In this document: positions 2,984 through 12,792 of the stretch, piece by piece
Layout: each line of letters starts with the position of its first letter
How positions within the stretch are numbered: the stretch's first letter is position 1
Virus record (IMG/VR): IMGVR_UViG_2571042372_000005
DNA: 16,037 bases
Direction: 5' to 3' (one strand)
Source: a virus
Taxonomy: Duplodnaviria > Heunggongvirae > Uroviricota > Caudoviricetes
Notes under the pieces: generated by a model
What the model saw: the letters and a program-made list of their open reading frames with translations, nothing else
Told to the model about the DNA's origin: nothing
The model's database searches: none
Made by a program: the position numbers and the translations under genes

Positions 2984-3550
2984 TCAGTGGAAGTTACCAG
3001 AGTGAAACACACGAGTCCCGTGCTCAGCAAGCGCACGCAAACCAGCCATATCTACGGAACTATCAAAAACAACCGGAACACATGAGCGTTGTTTAATAAG
3101 ACTATTCAGGTTGGTTACGGCAGATCTGGCATCAGCAACAACGATATAGATATCTCTTGCGATCTCTTTAAAATCAGCAGAAGCTTCTTTGAATACCGAT
3201 TTCATTGCCCCTTCAAGTCCTCTCAATTGATGCTCTATCAATCGAGACTTTTCTGGTTCAATGATAGACAACACATTGTCTACATTCTCATCGGTAGCGT
3301 TTGCAAGAACACGATAAGCGTATTTCAGCATTCGAGACAATTCTTTAATCGAAGACACCGCCTCATGAAGCTCATCATTAGCCCGTTCACTGCTGAATGA
3401 GGATTGATGGTAAGCGTGCTGAACGTTATCAGTAACAACCACCTCACAACTGAACGCAGAAGCTTGCTGTAATAGCAAACCTATTGCGACTCCAGCTTTG
3501 GCAGCGTTCAAGCTAAACATTTCATCAATCCCATTAGTCTCATTGCTCAT
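2984..3550 (-). CDS. Hypothetical 188-aa protein encoded immediately upstream of the YafO-like toxin; putative non-canonical antitoxin/partner
   Basis: AAGGAGG SD before the ATG at 3550 (the ORF-track start at 3580 lacks an SD); no RHH/HTH or YafN/Phd-like motif recognisable; same operon as the toxin. Confidence 0.5.
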   Translation of the reverse strand: MSNETNGIDEMFSLNAAKAGVAIGLLLQQASAFSCEVVVTDNVQHAYHQSSFSSERANDELHEAVSSIKELSRMLKYAYRVLANATDENVDNVLSIIEPEKSRLIEHQLRGLEGAMKSVFKEASADFKEIARDIYIVVADARSAVTNLNSLIKQRSCVPVVFDSSVDMAGLRALAEHGTRVFHSGNFH

Positions 3551-3725
3551 ACAAACCTCCTTCTTATCGGAGATTATCAATAGCTATGCATCCATTGAAT
3601 ACACGCTATGCGCAATAAGTTTACGTCACGTGATATCATTATGCAACCACCGTTCTATCACCGACTAACTTTACTCCCACTCCTATACATCATCTGGTAT
3701 CCTGCGCAAAACTAAGGAGGTTGGT

Positions 3726-5239: not shown

Positions 5240-5265
5240 TGAACCGCCCCGGGTTTCCTGGAGAG
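5240..5265. repeat. IS629 terminal inverted repeat (orfB-proximal end)
   Basis: TGAACCGCCCCGGGTTTCCTGGAGAG; partner at 6524..6549. Confidence 0.8.
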
Positions 5266-5281
5266 TGTTTTATCTGTGAAC

Positions 5282-6172
5282 TCAGGCTGCCAGATCATCG
5301 TTTCCGATGGAAGCATAATAAGCTTTTTCTGCTTCTGCCGGAGGAGTATGGCCCAGCCTTTCCAGCAATCGTCGATTGTTATACCAGTCCACCCACGTGA
5401 GTGTGGCCAGTTCCACTTCTGCACGGTTTTTCCAGCTCTTACGGTGTATTACCTCCGCTTTGTAAAGACCATTGATGCTCTCCGCCATCGCGTTGTCATA
5501 CGAGTCGCCTGTACTTCCTGTTGATGCCAGTAATCCGGCTTCCTTAAGCCGCTGTGTGTAGGCCAGCGATACATACTGAGAACCTTTATCACTGTGATGG
5601 ACCGTGCCGGACGGTCGACGGGCCCATAACGCCTGCTCCAGTGCATCCAGCACGAATGTCGTTTCCATGGACGATGAGACCCGCCACCCCACGATGTATC
5701 CGGCAAACACATCAATGATGAACGCCACATAGACGAAGCCCCGCCATGTGCTGACGTAAGTAAAATCAGCCACCCACAGCTGGTCAGGTCGTTCTGCCAC
5801 GAACTGACGGTTTACGCGGTCGCCTGCGGCAACGGCTTTCCGGCTGATGGTCGTACGGACCTTTTTACCCCGGAGAACACCGGCAAGTCCCATAACCGCC
5901 ATGAGACGTGCCACAGTGCATCTGGCCACTCTGATACCTTCCCGTAACAACTGACGCCAGACTTTACGCACACCGTATACCTTGTGATTTTCATCGTATA
6001 CGCGCTGTATCTCTTTCTTCAGCCAGTCATCGCGCTGCGCACGGGCACTGCGTTTATCCGGATGATGTCGCTGTTGCTGACAGTGGTAATACGTTGACGG
6101 GGCAATATGCAGTTCGCTGCATAGCGGTCCGACCCCGTACTGCTCACGCAGCTTATCCAGCAGTGGCATCAT
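5282..6172 (-). CDS. IS629 OrfB transposase (DDE integrase core)
   Basis: 296-aa ORF in the -1 frame relative to orfA; IS3-family catalytic-core-like sequence ([10 protein letters not shown]...[15 protein letters not shown]). Confidence 0.9.
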
Positions 6173-6495
6173 TTTTTCCAGAGGCGGTCGAACTCCGCCT
6201 TCGCAAAATAAGCGGAAGCCTGGCGAAGGATATCGTTACTGCGGCGCAGTTCACGATTTTCACGTTCCAGCTCTTTCAGACGCTGACGTTCAGCGGTGGT
6301 GAGCCCTCCATCACCGCCCCCGGTATCCCGCTCATGCTGGCGAACCCAGACACGCAGAGTCTCCGGCGTACAGCCAATCTTTGGAGCAATGGAACAAATT
6401 GTCGCCCATTGTGAGTCATATTCGCTCTGACTTTCCAGAACCATACGGACTGCCCGTTGACGGACTTCGGGGGAAAAACGAGTATTTTTAGTCAT
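6169..6495 (-). CDS. IS629 OrfA (HTH/leucine-zipper transposase N-terminal protein)
   Basis: 108 aa, [21 protein letters not shown]...; ends in the A-run GGAAAAAATGA that overlaps the orfB start, the usual site of -1 frameshifting in this family. Confidence 0.9.
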
Positions 6496-6523
6496 CCTGT
6501 TTACCTCTTTCTCAGGAAGTTTA

Positions 6524-6549
6524 GTCTCCAGGATTCCCGGGGCGGTTCA
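6524..6549. repeat. IS629 terminal inverted repeat (orfA-proximal end)
   Basis: Reverse complement reads TGAACCGCCCCGGGAATCCTGGAGAC. Confidence 0.8.
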
Positions 6550-7705
6550 TGATGATTGAGTCTGCGTCCTGTTCAATGCTTCCTGAATCACGCAAATCTG
6601 CGTTTGTCGGGCGTTTGTTTGGTCGCTTCTCAACATCGCGTGAAAGCTGACTCAGGGAAATAACCGGTGTTTTCAGGTCTTTCGCCATCGCCTTCAGGCT
6701 TCCGGAGATGTGAGCAATTGCGAGGTCGTTGCGGTCTGCTTTCGGCTTCTCAATCAGGCCAAGATAATCCGCCATGATGAGTGAGAGGTTTGGATTTTCC
6801 TGTTTGTGCCGTTCTGCGATTGAGCGTATTTCTTCGACCGATAATCGCGAGGCATCGACTACCCATACATCCAAATCTGCAAGCTGACTCATGCCGTTAG
6901 CAACACGTGCCCAGCCCTCGTCATCCATCGATGCAGGATTTCGCAGTACGCTAACCGACATCCTCCCGGCGTTGGCAATGCTTCGCTCTGCAATCTGCAA
7001 TGCGCTCATTTCCATTGAGAAAATCAATACCCCGCGCCGGACGTCAGAACCAGGAATAACGCGGCTTGCAACGCCTTCGGCAATCTTCAGCGCCAGTTCG
7101 GTTTTCCCCATACCAGGACGAGCAGCGATTATCACCAGGTCTTCCGCGTTCATCCCTCCGGTGATGGCATCAAGTTCTTCGATTCCGGTCTTCAGGGTAT
7201 CGGACTCTTCTCCGTTCCTCAGACGCCTGTCAAGCGTGTCAGTGTAGTCGGTGATGATTTCCCCTAACCGTACAGGTTTAACCTCGTCACGGGGCTTTCT
7301 GATGGCTGAGAGACGTTTTACAAGTTCATCCATCGCCTGACTCGATGCGTCGATGGTTCCGCTTTGGATTGGTTCACGCATTTCATCCATGATTTCCAGC
7401 ACCAGACGGCGGTGATAGTTATCCGCGACCATTCCGGCATATCCCTTCAGGTTTGCGGCGCTCGGGCAGTTTTTGCTGGTCATCAGGATTGACGTGAAAT
7501 GCTCCTCTCCGCACGCCTCGGCAACCATCAGCGCGTCGATTAGGTTTCTGTTTCTCGCCTGCTTCCGGATAACCTCGAAGGCTTTCCGGTAGAGCGGAAT
7601 TGAAAACGCTTCCGGCTCCAGCGTTGCAAGAACGTCACTGGCGGTTGGAGTTAATCCACCAATCAGCAGGCCACCGATAACGCTCGCTTCGATATCCTGT
7701 CTCAT
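6550..7705 (-). CDS. DnaB-family replicative helicase (P22 gene-12-like), 3'-truncated by IS629 copy B
   Basis: Walker [12 protein letters not shown]; DnaB C-terminal motifs [36 protein letters not shown], after which the frame runs into the IS inverted repeat; about 45-60 C-terminal residues missing by comparison with E. coli DnaB. Start ATG overlaps the upstream stop (ATGA). Confidence 0.85.
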
Positions 7706-8649
7706 GCAATCCCCCTGTCTGCAAACTTCCCTTCCCGAACTCCCGTTAACGAGTCTTCTCTCAGCAGGTAATCAAAATCAGCCGTCCAGCCCGTGTCGTT
7801 GTCTCCGAAGTAAAACGGCTTGGCCTGATGCACAAACGCCCTGACATACGCTCTGAAACCGTCCACGTTTGGCGTTTTCAGTTGCGGGATGATTTTCTTC
7901 AGGCGGCGTTTTCGTTTCTCGTTGACCGCAACAGCGTGTGGCAGTCTGTCACCGACTTCGGTGTTGTAGGCGTTCAGGAAGGATTCGTAGTCGATTCGTT
8001 CTGCCTTGCGACGTTCAGGTTTAACCTGCCCATCGCCTCCCCCATTGGGGGGTAGGGGGGTATTATTTATATTCTTGTTAATACCTTCTTGTTCATGATG
8101 TGCGGTTGTTTGTGCGGCTTCATGTGCGCTTTCATGTGCGGCATGTACGCTGAAAGCCGCGCTATTGCTGGCTTCATCATGTGCGGCATCATGTGCGGTT
8201 GTTTGTGCGGCTTCATGTGCGGGTAAATTGTCCATTTTTTGAGCATATTCATGGTAATTTGTGATGGTTATCACACGGCCTTTTTGCTTCTCTCCATCAA
8301 TGGAGATCATCCCCTCTTTCACAAAAACCTGAAGCATCCGCTCAACCTGATCACGGCTTGCTGGCTTGCCATGTCTGTCGCATAACTGAAGACCTAAATC
8401 AGCTGCTGTCACAACCAGTTGACCGGGTTGCAGATGCCATTCATGACCTTTGAAATTCGCTTTGTATGGCTTTCTGGCGGCATTCAGGAGAAGGTTTTCC
8501 CACAGGGTGCGAAGATAAACATCTTTCGCCCATGACTGTTTCAGAATGCTCCGGTACAACGGAATGTAACCAGTTTTCTGGTTCTCCATCCTGTTGCTCC
8601 TGCGCTCGTGTGCGGCGCTGAAATCGTAGATTTTTGCTGTATTGCTCAT
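7702..8649 (-). CDS. Replication initiator (lambda O / P22 gene-18-like) containing the origin iterons
   Basis: N-terminus [10 protein letters not shown]... recalls lambda O (MTNTAKILNF...); internal reiterated [10 protein letters not shown] peptide corresponds to DNA iterons; translationally coupled to the helicase. Confidence 0.7.
8055..8222. repeat. Putative phage replication origin: two clusters of 12-bp-period iterons (8094..8222) with an adjacent AT-rich stretch (8055..8093)
   Basis: (C/T)ATGTGCGG repeated about 9 times; a 35-bp unit is near-perfectly duplicated (8094..8128 and 8187..8221); the AT-rich stretch lies downstream in the direction of O transcription, as in lambda ori. Confidence 0.6.
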
Positions 8650-8651
8650 AA

Positions 8652-8924
8652 CTACCTGCCTTGACGAAAGACCTTAAGAACATCGTTAAACTGACTTACG
8701 GATATGTCTTCTTTGAGAAGCTTTTCCAGAAATGCGTTTGGAATGAACGTATATCCCTCCTCTTTTGGTAGAGACGGGAGCAACGCCCTCGCCTCAGCCT
8801 TCAGAAGCTCAGTTCTGGCAACTTTCACAAAAGAGATTTGAGTTCTTTCATCAATGGAACGAAGGAAGCGCAAACGCTTAGCTTCTTTGTGTGTATCAGG
8901 TGGATTAAAGCCTTTGTTTCGCAT
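8652..8924 (-). CDS. Hypothetical protein (90 aa) between cII and the initiator gene
   Basis: ATG at 8924 with GAGG SD; the ORF-track 181-aa version overlaps cII in another frame and is probably an over-extension. Confidence 0.5.
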   Translation of the reverse strand: MRNKGFNPPDTHKEAKRLRFLRSIDERTQISFVKVARTELLKAEARALLPSLPKEEGYTFIPNAFLEKLLKEDISVSQFNDVLKVFRQGR

Positions 8925-8946
8925 ATAATTACCTCGTTGGATGTTG

Positions 8947-9240
8947 TTAAAATTCCATTTGTATTTGATCAGAACGCTCGGTTGCCGCCGGGCGTTTTTT
9001 ATTGGTGAGAATCGAAGCAACTTGTCGTGCCAATCGAGCCATGTCGTCGTCGACAACACCCCATTCAAGAACAGCAAGCAGCATTGAGAACTTTGGAATC
9101 CAGTCCCTCTTCCACCTGCTGATCTGCGACTTATCAACGCCCACAGCTTCCGCTGTCTTCTCAGTTCCAAGCATTGCGATTTTGTTAAGCAACGCACTCT
9201 CGATTCTTAGAGCCTCGTTGCGTTTGTTTGCACGAACCAT
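8947..9240 (-). CDS. cII: Transcriptional activator CII (97 aa), lambda-type
   Basis: MVRANKRNEALRIESALLNKIAMLGTEKTAEAVGVDKSQISRWKRDWIPKF...QIQMEF matches lambda CII as recalled, essentially residue for residue; upstream AAGGAAATACTTACATATG context also lambda-like. Confidence 0.9.
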   Translation of the reverse strand: MVRANKRNEALRIESALLNKIAMLGTEKTAEAVGVDKSQISRWKRDWIPKFSMLLAVLEWGVVDDDMARLARQVASILTNKKRPAATERSDQIQMEF

Positions 9241-9297
9241 ATGTAAGTATTTCCTTAACAAATAAGAAGTTATGCGCATCAACTTATGCGCGTTGTA

Positions 9298-9341
9298 TTC
9301 CCGCATTTCGGCGGGAATGAGGACCATGACTGTTAAAGAGC
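9298..9341 (-). promoter_or_regulatory. nutR (boxA + boxB hairpin)
   Basis: On the - strand: boxA-like GCTCTTTAACA (9331..9341), then boxB hairpin TTCCCGC-cgaaat-GCGGGAA (9298..9317); the same elements recur at nutL. Confidence 0.6.
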
Positions 9342-9348
9342 AATTTGC

Positions 9349-9534
9349 TTATGCCGCTTTGCGGTAAGCGCTTTCTTGATACTTCAGGGCGCCAGCTGTA
9401 ACGACTTCCAGTCGATAGGCGTCTTTCTCTGGGATGACTTCCTTCCACTGAGAGACTGCTGCGTCGCTAATGCCTAACGCTTTAGCTACAGCACGCTGGG
9501 TTCCGAAGTGGTCGATAACATCTTTCTTGTACAT
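9349..9534 (-). CDS. cro: Cro-like HTH repressor (61 aa)
   Basis: HTH QRAVAKALGISDAAVSQW; divergent from cI across an operator region; GGAG SD. Confidence 0.8.
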   Translation of the reverse strand: MYKKDVIDHFGTQRAVAKALGISDAAVSQWKEVIPEKDAYRLEVVTAGALKYQESAYRKAA

Positions 9535-9614
9535 AGACTCGCTCCGAAATTAAAGAACACTTAAATTATCCACTAAAGGAATCTTAAGTCAAGTTTATTT
9601 AAGATGTCTTAACT
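9535..9614. promoter_or_regulatory. oR / pR / pRM divergent control region
   Basis: pR on the - strand: -35 TTGACT (9587..9592), 16-17 bp spacer, -10 GATAAT (9565..9570). Recurrent operator-like motifs with a TTAAG/TTAAAT core (ACTTAAATT, ATCTTAAGT, TTTAAGAT). Confidence 0.6.
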
Positions 9615-10265
9615 ATGAAAACTCAATTGATGGGAGAGCGCATTCGCGCTCGGAGAAAAGAACTCAAGATCAGGCAGGCCGCACTTGGAAAGATGGTCGG
9701 CGTGTCTAATGTTGCCATATCTCAGTGGGAACGCTCTGAGACAGAGCCAAATGGAGAGAATCTTCTCGCCCTGGCTAATGCGTTGAAGTGTTCCCCTGAC
9801 TATCTGATGAAAGGAGAGGAAAGTCTTTCAAACATTGCCTATCACAGTAGGCATGATCCAAGAGGGTCATACCCTCTGATTAGCTGGGTGAGCGCAGGAT
9901 GCTGGATGGAAGCTGTAGAACCATATCATAAGCGTGCAATAGATAACTGGTACGATACAACCGTAGACTGTTCAGAAGATTCGTTTTGGTTGGACGTGAA
10001 GGGAGACTCAATGACGGCTCCGGCCGGTCTCAGTATCCCTGAAGGAATGATAATACTCGTCGATCCTGAAGTAGAGCCGCGTAACGGGAAACTGGTAGTT
10101 GCAAAGCTCGAAGGAGAAAACGAGGCAACTTTCAAGAAGTTAGTTATTGATGCAGGCAGGAAGTTTCTAAAACCACTTAACCCACAATATCCGATGATCG
10201 AGATCAACGGAAACTGCAAAATCATCGGCGTAGTTGTCGATGCAAAACTAGCAAACCTTCCATAA
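9615..10265 (+). CDS. cI: CI-type prophage repressor (HTH_XRE N-terminal domain + S24 LexA-like autopeptidase domain)
   Basis: HTH LKIRQAALGKMVGVSNVAISQWE; S24 Ser in GDSM and Lys in KKLV; 216 aa. Confidence 0.9.
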   Translation: MKTQLMGERIRARRKELKIRQAALGKMVGVSNVAISQWERSETEPNGENLLALANALKCSPDYLMKGEESLSNIAYHSRHDPRGSYPLISWVSAGCWMEAVEPYHKRAIDNWYDTTVDCSEDSFWLDVKGDSMTAPAGLSIPEGMIILVDPEVEPRNGKLVVAKLEGENEATFKKLVIDAGRKFLKPLNPQYPMIEINGNCKIIGVVVDAKLANLP

Positions 10266-10290
10266 GGGGGCATTCGCCCCTTTTTTTTTA
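10264..10290 (+). terminator. Intrinsic terminator after cI
   Basis: GGGGC-attc-GCCCC followed by T9. Confidence 0.85.
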
Positions 10291-10299
10291 TTTCCTTTA

Positions 10300-10392
10300 A
10301 AAATCAAAGCCAAACTTAAGTTACGAAAGAAAATTTAAGTTTTCTTCAAAAATGCTCTTGACCATTAATTAAAGAGATCTTAAATTTAAGCC
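10300..10392 (+). promoter_or_regulatory. pL promoter with oL operator repeats
   Basis: -35 TTGACC (10358..10363), 17-bp spacer, -10 TAAATT (10381..10386); operator-like AACTTAAGTT, AATTTAAGTT and ATCTTAAATTTAAG share the core seen at oR. Confidence 0.6.
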
Positions 10393-10432
10393 ATCAGCAG
10401 GACGCTGGAAGCCAAACGGAACAGATTGGCAG

Positions 10433-10476
10433 GCTCTTTAACATTGATGGGATTGTCCCGCCGAAATGCGGGAACC
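10433..10476 (+). promoter_or_regulatory. nutL (boxA + boxB hairpin)
   Basis: boxA-like GCTCTTTAACA (10433..10443), 12-nt spacer, boxB hairpin TCCCGC-cgaaat-GCGGGA (10456..10473), identical to the nutR boxB. Confidence 0.6.
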
Positions 10477-10786
10477 AAAGAGTAGTTGGCTTTGGGGTGA
10501 CGTGAAGTGCAGCTGCACGACGGCAACCGGAAGATAAGCACCCGGCGCGTCACCGCCAAAGTCAATTCCATAGGCGTTATGCAGCCGCCACCATATTCAA
10601 GAAAGCTGCACAAGAGGTAGGAGGATTTATGTGAATGCATAACTTCAAAACCGAGGTTAATTAAATCTCTCGATCCGAGCATCGACCTATTAGGTGGCGA
10701 GATGCTCTTTCTGCCCCTCAGTTCGAGGGGCCAGAAACCACTTTGCAATCACTATCAATTCCAAAGTTGTTTCATCGGAGGTCAAC

Positions 10787-11086
10787 ATGACAGTAGTCAT
10801 TACATATCTGGCTGACGATAACGCCAGAAATCGCCGCAGAGCACGCAGACAGGCTCAACGTGAACAGGCGATGCAAGAACAGCGACTGGCGCGAAAAATT
10901 GCGCTAAAGCTCTCTGGTTGCGTCAGAGCGGATAAAGCAGCATCACTCGGAATCCTTCGCTGCAAGAAGGCAGATGAAGTCGAGAGTAAACAGAATCGTA
11001 TTTACTACCGCAAGCCACGCAGTGAAATGGGTGTGACTTGTGTTGGTCGCCAGAAAATGAAATTAGGCAGCAAACCACTTATTTGA
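10787..11086 (+). CDS. N: N-type transcription antiterminator (99 aa)
   Basis: Arg-rich motif DNARNRRRARRQAQREQ near the N-terminus; C-terminus YYRKPRSEMGVTCVGRQKMKLGSKPLI resembles lambda N (YSKPGERGITCSGRQKIKGKSIPLI); GGAGG SD before the ATG at 10787. Confidence 0.85.
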   Translation: MTVVITYLADDNARNRRRARRQAQREQAMQEQRLARKIALKLSGCVRADKAASLGILRCKKADEVESKQNRIYYRKPRSEMGVTCVGRQKMKLGSKPLI

Positions 11087-11094
11087 GGTGATAT

Positions 11095-11565
11095 ATGACA
11101 AAATCATGGAGCGTACCTTTTCCTGAATCAGAAACTGAACATGATGGAATGCCTGTTTTCTGGAGATTCCAAGCGACAGTTGAAGAAGATGGAATCAAAA
11201 TATTCGCACTTCAATATATAGCTTTTCATCAGACAGAGCATTATGCATGGTTGGTTCCTGCGCATTGGATTGTTAATTTTAAACCAGCACCAAATCAGTG
11301 GTTACAGGAATGGAAACAAAGGAGAAATAGATATGCAATTAAGAAAGTAGCAAAAAATGCAGAAAGATCTTTTGCATTCCCGACGAAGAAACTTGCCATT
11401 GAAAGTTTATTGCGCCGGAAGAAATACCATTTGATGAGAATCAAACAAGATTTGGCTGTTGTATCAACTCTTGTTGATGGGATGAAGAATATTGATACAT
11501 CAACACCAGGTATTGAATATAACTTTGGACACAACCAAGAAACAGAAAACTGGGTGTTTTATTAG
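11095..11565 (+). CDS. Hypothetical protein (156 aa), AT-rich insert between N and the tL terminator
   Basis: GAGGTG SD 5 nt before the ATG; base composition visibly more AT-rich than flanking phage genes; no recognisable motif. Confidence 0.5.
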   Translation: MTKSWSVPFPESETEHDGMPVFWRFQATVEEDGIKIFALQYIAFHQTEHYAWLVPAHWIVNFKPAPNQWLQEWKQRRNRYAIKKVAKNAERSFAFPTKKLAIESLLRRKKYHLMRIKQDLAVVSTLVDGMKNIDTSTPGIEYNFGHNQETENWVFY

Positions 11566-11669
11566 TACGAATAAGCACTGTGTATTCATTCCAACGAGTG
11601 AATACACGGAGCAATGTCGCTCGTAACTAAACAGGAGCCGACTTGTTCTGATTATTGGAAATCTTCTTT

Positions 11670-11695
11670 GCCCTCCAGTGTGAGGGCTTTTTTAT
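11670..11695 (+). terminator. Intrinsic terminator (tL1-like)
   Basis: GCCCTC-cagtgt-GAGGGC followed by TTTTTTAT. Confidence 0.8.
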
Positions 11696-11759
11696 ATGCA
11701 TACCAATAACGCTTCACTCGAGGCGTTTTCGTTATGCAATCAAACAGAAGGAGCATCCT

Positions 11760-11930
11760 ATGCAACAGTTCGCTATTGCAGGGGCGGCATCGGTTCGCCC
11801 TTTCAACCCGATTTTATCGGTACAGCATTCACGAAAAAACATTTTAACCGGAGCAGACTTTAAACAACCAAGAATGAAAAGCTTGCTCGAAAAGCTTTGG
11901 GATATTTTGAAACAACAAGGCCGTCCATGA
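11760..11930 (+). CDS. cIII: CIII-like small protein (56 aa; putative FtsH inhibitor)
   Basis: MQQFAIAG... and ...SLLEKLWDILKQQGRP resemble lambda CIII as recalled (MQYAIAG...LIDILNQPGVP); AGGAG SD. Confidence 0.55.
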   Translation: MQQFAIAGAASVRPFNPILSVQHSRKNILTGADFKQPRMKSLLEKLWDILKQQGRP

Positions 11931-12085
11931 GTTTTACGGATAACTGGTCAGACGAAGAATTCATTCGTCAGATAAAAGAATTAATCGGTAACGAAGGAGA
12001 TATTCATGTCACTTGCAACCACAGTGAAGGAGAGCAAGTTACAGAGACGCATGTACACGCAGAAAGCTCTCTGGTATCGCCATAA
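11927..12085 (+). CDS. Hypothetical small protein (52 aa)
   Basis: ATGA start/stop overlap with the cIII-like gene; sits at the kil-equivalent position; no homology recognised. Confidence 0.35.
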   Translation: MSFTDNWSDEEFIRQIKELIGNEGDIHVTCNHSEGEQVTETHVHAESSLVSP

Positions 12086-12186
12086 TGGTGACCGCGAAGG
12101 AATGCGGGTATGCCTTAATTTGTCCCGAGTCGAAGTATTAAATCAGCGTTATTTCCTTGGGCCGTGTCCATTCTGAGAGCAATCAT

Positions 12187-12792
12187 ATGAGCAAAGAATT
12201 TTACGCAAGACTGGCAGCTATTCAGGAGAATCTGAACGCGCCAAAGAATCAGTACAACTCATTCGGCAAATATAAATACAGAAGCTGCGAAGATATTCTT
12301 GAAGGCGTTAAGCCGTTACTGAACGGTCTGTTTTTATCAATCAGCGATGAAGTTGTGTTGATTGGTGATCGGTATTACGTGAAAGCCACGGCAACTATTA
12401 CCGATGGCGAAAACAGTCATACGGCAACCGCTCTTGCACGAGAGGAAGAAAGCAAGAAAGGAATGGATTCTGCACAAGTTACGGGAGCTACAAGCTCTTA
12501 TGCACGCAAGTATTGCCTCAATGGTTTGTTCGGCATTGATGATGCGAAAGATGCAGATACAGACGAGCATAAACATCAGCAGAACGCAGCAGCAAAGCAA
12601 TCAAAACCATCACTTACACCTGAACAGGTTCTAAAAGCATTCACTGACGCAGCAATGCAGAAAAACACCGTAGAAGAGCTTAAACAGGCGTTCGCCAAAG
12701 CGTGGAAGATGCTCGAAGGGACGCCGGAGCAGCACAAAGCGCAGGACGTTTACAACATCAGACGAGACGAATTAGAAGGGGCAACTGCTTAA
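12187..12792 (+). CDS. erf: Erf-family single-strand annealing recombinase (P22 Erf-like)
   Basis: MSKEFYARLAAIQENLNAPKNQYNSFGKYKYRSCEDILEGVKPLL... matches P22 Erf as recalled. Confidence 0.75.
   Translation: MSKEFYARLAAIQENLNAPKNQYNSFGKYKYRSCEDILEGVKPLLNGLFLSISDEVVLIGDRYYVKATATITDGENSHTATALAREEESKKGMDSAQVTGATSSYARKYCLNGLFGIDDAKDADTDEHKHQQNAAAKQSKPSLTPEQVLKAFTDAAMQKNTVEELKQAFAKAWKMLEGTPEQHKAQDVYNIRRDELEGATA

Follow-up and report, generated by a model that had tools for sequence, protein, structure and literature searches.

An Uncharacterized Gene Directly Behind N in a Lambdoid Prophage as a Candidate Early Counter-Defense Cassette

The Locus and Its Alternative Cargoes

The 16,037-nucleotide (nt) stretch of viral DNA analyzed here (IMG/VR record IMGVR_UViG_2571042372_000005), called the window in its whole length below, contains the immunity and early region of a P22-like or lambdoid prophage, and the closest phage to it overall is CUS-3. 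The subject of this report is the gene at 11095–11565, which encodes a protein of 156 amino acids (aa) and begins 8 nt past the antitermination gene N, exactly at the coordinates given in a preliminary description of the sequence. It is an uncharacterized example of the variable early accessory genes of lambdoid phages. By the comparisons below, it is one of at least four alternative cargoes carried in a conserved socket directly behind N. The preliminary description had called the gene inserted. Its location after N stands, but it is not a simple insertion; it is an allelic cassette that replaces orf28-ral, with or without a further open reading frame (ORF), between conserved junctions.

The junctions are most easily seen against CUS-3. 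In pairwise mapping, homology to CUS-3 at 98% extends from 8500 to 11097, the end of the ATG of the gene, resumes over 11575–11693 at 97.5%, and then from 11927 onward at 99.9%. In the slot, CUS-3 has a 28-codon acidic ORF of the lambda orf28 type, ral, and a 140-aa hydrophobic ORF (PHROG 3054), and phage 21 has orf28-ral. The window, CUS-3, phage 21 and HK106 have the same left junction, TGAGGTGATATATG, letter for letter and diverge straight after the ATG, and the shared ATG opens a different first cargo gene in each phage. The one it opens in 21 and CUS-3 is a very acidic 28-aa orf28-like peptide, MEEEFEEFEEHPQDVMEQYQDYPYDYDY, upstream of ral. On the right is a 121-bp block that 325 phage records carry at 95% identity or more, whichever gene precedes it. 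The block is located between ral and ea10 in phage 21 and in the lambda imm21 hybrid. In lambda, N is separated from the matching gap between ral and ea10 by sieB, orf28 and ral. The 121-bp block serves as a boundary sequence in the exchange of cassettes. Its RNA fold scores z = −4.9 against shuffled sequence, and it may also stabilize or process the mRNA of N and the cargo. The 12-bp hairpin within it is invariant in four phages and could be an mRNA 3′-end stabilizer or a processing site.

The other cargoes are orf28-ral, orf28-ral with a membrane ORF, and HK106_042, an unrelated protein of 83 aa. HK106_042 and its VT2-Sakai counterpart p20 were considered as truncated copies of the gene and have no similarity to it, and CUS-3 ORF 0047 was likewise rejected as a relative. 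The comparison of the N-to-cIII interval across relatives, which the preliminary description had proposed, thus yielded an exact cassette swap with orf28-ral. It also bore out the earlier argument from position, which had placed the gene in the interval used by ral- and sieB-type genes.

HK97 and 933W have little more than 11033–11695 in common with the window, at 98% DNA identity; this covers the gene, the block after it and the final 54 nt of N. HK97 additionally shares 11696–11753 together with the recombination region erf-abc2, while cIII is only weakly matched in 933W. For P22 and L, earlier work describes mosaic joints within the 3′ end of N (PMC8022706). The 98%-identical cassette follows different N alleles, together with different immunity regions, and the recombination modules beside it are Erf/Abc2 in the window and HK97, Gam/Bet/Exo in 933W and Bet in 683R2. 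Host-directed accessory genes typically combine with phage backbones in this independent way.

The base composition of the gene is also distinct, as the preliminary description had noticed by eye and as calculation confirms. Its G+C content (GC) is 36.7%, while the window as a whole averages 46.3%. Among all 471-nt segments of the window, just 0.46% are this low, and every one of these overlaps the gene. GC at third codon positions is 29%, compared to 39–57% for the neighboring genes, so there is a bias in codon choice and not in amino acid content alone. In all six of the other genomic contexts examined, the homolog is likewise lower in GC than its flanks.

Family, Distribution and Selection

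The gene is the same as HK97 gene 45 (gp45) and 933W L0079, to whose products its protein is 98–99% identical, and H-19B carries it as well. It is a member of PHROG 1636, matching the profile end to end (residues 1–156 on positions 1–156 of 156, E = 1.1e-111). This membership is already catalogued and carries no functional information; the annotation in every source is hypothetical or prophage protein. The protein is 100% identical to WP_000167596.1 from E. coli ATCC 11775. Eighty phage records hold the gene at 95–99% DNA identity, mostly Shiga toxin (Stx) phages of the Stx1 or Stx2 type, and it is present in 598 of 5,426 complete E. coli genomes (11%), in a maximum of four copies per genome.

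The gene is real and under strong purifying selection. Near-identical copies differ by 5–9 synonymous and 1–2 nonsynonymous changes, giving a ratio of nonsynonymous to synonymous rates (dN/dS) of 0.03–0.05, and dN/dS between the Brenneria and Pectobacterium copies is 0.07. Full-length orthologs at 55–85% identity are found in Salmonella, Cronobacter, Rosenbergiella, Pectobacterium, Brenneria and Symbiopectobacterium. An exhaustive profile search brought in 87 relatives, about 70 of which are proteins of 115–170 aa aligning over most of their length at roughly 20–25% identity. All 74 of the aligned members match PHROG 1636, and most match PHROG 13631 too. The superfamily is phage-specific. It spans PHROGs 1636, 13631, 25384 and 28215, and its members come from lambdoid, P22-like and Stx phages as well as from less closely related phages that infect Proteobacteria and Bacteroidota.

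No recognized motif was reported initially, and that remains the case: Pfam, NCBIfam and PADLOC gave no usable match for the protein or for any of the 74 relatives. The sole match to the defense models of PADLOC-DB v2 was a stray one to Cas1_II (E = 0.018, 12 bits, 45 residues).

The Protein and Its Predicted Fold

The protein is basic (isoelectric point 9.3), with acidic ends around a central stretch, residues 61–131, of net charge +13. A hydropathy scan found no transmembrane segment; the highest Kyte–Doolittle mean over 19 residues is 0.56, far under transmembrane values. It is predicted to be soluble. The AlphaFold model rose in mean per-residue confidence (pLDDT) from 64 to 96 with a deeper alignment and has a predicted TM-score of 0.83. 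It consists of a long beta-hairpin (residues 19–30 and 33–46) and further strands at 50–55 and 83–86, forming a four-stranded sheet, with two short helices, a 33-residue helix (98–130) and an ordered C-terminal tail. Only G33, T47, K87 and A101 are near-invariant across the superfamily. There is thus no catalytic constellation, which points to a binding protein rather than an enzyme.

The model describes a confidently predicted fold without a match among solved structures. Sequence and profile searches of the PDB gave best E-values of 0.36–0.67, which is noise. A structure search of BFVD matched only uncharacterized phage proteins, some of them in N4-like and Vi1-like phages. Sensitive profile and structure searches had been recommended at the outset, and their yield is uncharacterized phage relatives.

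Layout of the Early Region and Expression Logic

The features that frame the gene are collected in Table 1. The N protein is 98% identical to the N annotated in CUS-3; its match to Pfam N_peptide is weak and below threshold. The boxA-like and boxB-like elements upstream of it form a candidate nutL, by analogy with the nut sites of lambdoid phages. A strong terminator after the gene had been claimed previously, and the one found has a 6-bp G+C stem followed by T6; its homologs are annotated as rho-independent in HK97, HK106 and phage 21. The cIII assignment of the next gene comes from similarity and position, with no family match, and is putative. Beyond it are arf, erf, an SSB-like gene and abc2. 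A search of Rfam over 10200–12200 returned nothing real.

Table 1. Features of the immunity and early region in window coordinates.
Feature	Position	Strand	Description and basis
cI/c2-type repressor gene	9615–10265	+	Peptidase_S24 and HTH domains
Strong terminator after cI/c2	10264–10283	+	Follows the repressor gene
pL-like sigma-70 promoter	10358–10386	+	TTGACC-17-TAAATT; consensus scans; putative pL by position
Candidate nutL, boxA-like	10703–10710	+	TGCTCTTT; read from sequence
Candidate nutL, boxB-like hairpin	10713–10731	+	GCCCCTC-AGTTC-GAGGGGC; read from sequence
N-type transcription antiterminator gene	10787–11086	+	99 aa; PHROG 271, E = 2.9e-36
Left cassette junction	11084–11097	+	N stop overlaps Shine–Dalgarno (SD) sequence, then ATG
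Gene under study	11095–11565	+	ATG start, 156 aa; end coordinate includes stop codon
Right boundary block	11575–11695	+	121 bp; 12-bp hairpin, second stem, terminator
12-bp hairpin	11580–11607	+	4-nt loop, no U tract; minimum-free-energy and centroid structures
Intrinsic terminator	11670–11693	+	GCCCTC-CAGTGT-GAGGGC + T6; 6-bp stem at 11670–11687; first terminator after N
cIII-like gene	11760–11930	+	56 aa; translation; 83% DNA match to 933W cIII region

Some further mosaicism is evident in the interval that follows the cassette. The 3′ end of the cIII-like gene has an ATGA overlap with a small ORF at 11927–12085, which is where CUS-3 and HK97 homology resumes. No kil homolog of the CUS-3/HK97 type was seen between the cIII-like gene and this ORF. 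The segment 11696–11926 constitutes a third mosaic patch.

The arrangement makes a definite prediction for expression. The pL-like promoter is the sole promoter-like site upstream of N and the gene. Between it and the start codon of the gene, a consensus scan found no sigma-70-like site, even at 8 or more of 12 matches, although such a scan would miss non-canonical or activator-dependent promoters. Transcription of cI is closed by a strong terminator, so the gene is isolated from transcription arising at pRM. Since no promoter of its own was found and there is no terminator between N and the gene, it should be transcribed together with N once pL fires, and antitermination would not be needed. 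The earlier proposal of expression from pL is supported by this and by the 8-nt spacing from N. We infer that the timing is immediate-early and that the gene should be silent in a repressed prophage.

A Possible Host-Directed Function

The reading that we favor, tentatively, is that the gene encodes an immediate-early, pL-driven protein of host interference or counter-defense that acts by binding. A soluble, basic, non-enzymatic alpha/beta protein would be made with N from a pL transcript that ends at the terminator of the boundary block. It would appear in the first minutes after infection or induction, ahead of N-dependent antitermination, and would not be made in the repressed prophage. The gene is a mobile accessory cassette in the slot from N to the terminator, where orf28-ral is its allele, and its most likely target would be the host rather than the machinery of the phage itself. 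By binding stoichiometrically to a protein or nucleic acid of the host, it would neutralize an early barrier to phage DNA, for instance restriction or some other nuclease-type defense, or would otherwise condition the cell. We infer the host target and the counter-defense role because of the predicted timing, the exact allelism to ral, the free combination with different N alleles, immunity regions and recombination modules, the solubility, the lack of a catalytic signature and the neighborhoods of the remote relatives. The screen of Silas et al. described the ral region as a phage accessory region with both counter-defense genes and triggers of abortive infection (bioRxiv 10.1101/2023.04.06.535777).

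The remote relatives are embedded in strings of small early genes. In Brenneria and Pectobacterium prophages, an ortholog of about 60% identity is directly upstream of xis-int. In Salmonella phage NX263 and related metagenomic contigs, the ortholog is the first gene of the early operon and is followed by a ParB-like gene. A DNA methyltransferase is encoded within a few genes in 4 of about 9 non-lambdoid contexts, a small sample for which there is no base rate. In Pantoea phage LIET2 (1965–3865 of locus L024) and Klebsiella phage phi_KPN_H2 (2090–5296 of locus L025), a homologous PHROG 757 DNA methyltransferase gene is two genes upstream of the relative, and in phi_KPN_H2 the relative is followed by SLOG (YAcAr), NADAR and ParB-like genes in the same segment. 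This arrangement in the two phages looks like an early counter-defense cluster. A cytosine methyltransferase is encoded in the same operon as the relative in a prophage (L013) and in Pseudomonas phage Medea1. No conserved partner gene was found beside the remote relatives; only the PHROG 757 methyltransferase and the ParB-like PHROG 1033 recur. These associations hint at a link of the family to restriction evasion or counter-defense.

Several points weigh against a counter-defense role. No experiment, paper or annotated homolog assigns the gene a function, and literature searches under L0079, gp45, the accessions and the locus tags returned no paper on it. The gene is absent from the 200-gene accessory library of Silas et al. 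(bioRxiv 10.1101/2023.04.06.535777). The protein has no sequence or fold similarity to Ral, to Ocr/ArdA or to any solved anti-defense protein. The methyltransferase association is weak, and the promoter scan has the blind spots stated above. Finally, in lambda the slot holds sieB, a defense gene, so position alone leaves the direction unsettled.

A broader proposal, which we regard as possible but doubtful, is that the whole superfamily constitutes a phage-wide family of immediate-early counter-defense proteins that are not DNA mimics, have a fold unseen in solved structures, and do the job of Ral by a different mechanism. For example, a restriction or nuclease system might be blocked or redirected by a basic binding protein.

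Four other explanations were weighed. The first is a regulator of phage development, that is, an RNA- or DNA-binding factor tuning N antitermination, the stability of the pL transcript or the decision between lysis and lysogeny. A gene that moves freely among backbones is a poor fit to such a role, and we consider it unlikely.

Less likely again is an accessory protein of DNA transactions, either in early replication and recombination or in protection of incoming genome ends, with a role like that of ea10/ssb, Gam or Abc. The gene does lie in the early-left operon beside recombination genes, its product is basic, and the ParB-like PHROG 1033 gene recurs beside the relatives in NX263 and phi_KPN_H2. 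However, the gene occurs whatever the type of recombination module, again a poor fit given its independence from the backbone, and most lambdoid phages do without it; it is found in just 80 of the 325 records with the boundary block. Neither is there any similarity to SSB, Gam, Abc or NinB families in PHROGs, Pfam or the PDB.

The preliminary description had suggested exclusion or anti-restriction. Anti-restriction, or counter-defense generally, fits by position, timing and neighborhood only. Exclusion of the prophage type, in which a gene like sieB or rex is expressed in the lysogen against superinfecting phages, is disfavored. We rate it quite improbable and less likely than counter-defense. 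In its favor, lambda has sieB in the same interval, the AT-rich atypical composition is moron-like, and the gene is very common in E. coli prophages, as the genome counts show. Against it, no promoter-like site was found from the repressed pL to the gene, and the strong terminator stops transcription of cI. The protein lacks a transmembrane segment, has no real PADLOC match and is unrelated to SieB by profile comparison (hhalign probability 0.7%). There are also the structural relatives in N4-like and Vi1-like phages, which are groups of virulent phages.

The least likely of the four is a toxin for host takeover, or a growth modulator, of the Kil kind and unconnected with immunity. The immediate-early timing and the general tendency of small early phage proteins to target essential host machinery can be cited for it, but kil-type genes are already present in the same operon of the phage and its relatives, and nothing specific speaks for it.

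Whatever its role, the gene would act at the most vulnerable moment of infection or induction, and its product and N would be the only two proteins that this type of phage can make before antitermination. HK97, the Shiga toxin phages 933W and H-19B, many other Stx1 and Stx2 phages, and prophages in roughly one complete E. coli genome out of nine carry a gene without a name, a domain family or a structural relative. The existence of such a gene would not surprise a specialist, yet it is a clean and testable candidate. If the favored counter-defense role is true, the phage anti-immunity proteins would gain a fold and a mechanism new to them, with consequences for the host range of Stx phages and for how successfully they are induced. 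The shared SD/ATG junction and the 121-bp block also provide a clean natural expression socket in which alternative cargoes are easily compared.

Other Features of the Window

An insertion sequence (IS) of the IS3 family occupies 5240–6549, with orfA at 6169–6495 (HTH_Tnp_1) and orfB at 5282–6172 (rve). Its 25-nt terminal inverted repeats (TGAACCGCCCCGGG...) are presumably IS629/IS1203-like. Its right end overlaps the 3′ end of a DnaB-like helicase gene (6521–7705, − strand), so the replication module of the prophage is probably disrupted. Further to the left, an Arc/ribbon-helix-helix gene (1651–1941, +) is directly upstream of a ClpP-like protease ORF (1941–2477, +; E = 2e-11), and a YafO-family toxin gene (2526–2975, −) is beside an unassigned ORF of 198 aa (2984–3580, −). 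These genes may be toxin–antitoxin or other accessory modules inside the prophage.

Comparison with Known Systems

The nearest known cases are HK97 gp45, 933W L0079 and the H-19B ORF, which are the same gene in the same place after N and before the same hairpin–terminator block. There is no substantive difference between the gene and HK97 gp45 or 933W L0079; theirs are annotated only as hypothetical.

SieB of lambda and P22, with its antagonist Esc, occupies the same genomic interval, which in lambda lies between N and ral. Lysogens express SieB as a membrane protein. The predicted sequence of lambda SieB is hydrophobic at the N-terminus, whereas the protein studied here has no transmembrane segment and its gene has no promoter of its own by the consensus scan, which is suggestive only as regards expression of the SieB type in lysogens. 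Homology to SieB/Esc was considered and rejected. A tblastn match falls inside the gene in another reading frame, BLASTP gave no meaningful alignment, and the 0.7% probability quoted above is from comparing the 74-sequence profile with lambda SieB. Anti-restriction by DNA mimicry, as in Ocr and ArdA, was ruled out because the protein is basic and has no homology or fold match to them.

The gene has some of the properties of a moron, as in HK97 and HK022, namely its atypical composition, a downstream terminator and presence or absence between close relatives. By the definition of Hendrix and Juhala, a moron comprises a promoter, a gene and a terminator of its own; here, no promoter was found, and the terminator belongs to the backbone block. 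The genes of the accessory regions in Silas et al. are of the same class of variable, non-essential early genes. One of these, orf184 of the ral accessory region, triggers gop-beta-cII (bioRxiv 10.1101/2023.04.06.535777); it is an acidic protein of 107 aa and is unrelated to the gene.

The closest parallel in position is Ral of lambda and phage 21. Ral is a restriction-alleviation protein of 66 aa in a different PHROG, compared to 156 aa here, and in 21 and CUS-3 it is preceded by the 28-aa acidic ORF on the shared ATG. With lambda Ral as the query, tblastn recovers the ral genes of CUS-3 and phage 21; the window gives nothing significant, and the 933W, 683R2, HK97 and HK106 loci give no match at E ≤ 1e-3. 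Ral and the gene occupy exactly the same slot, which opens at the junction of N stop, SD and ATG and closes at the 121-bp terminator block. Early transcription of both would be driven by pL, and both are non-essential cargo that swaps between near-identical phages.
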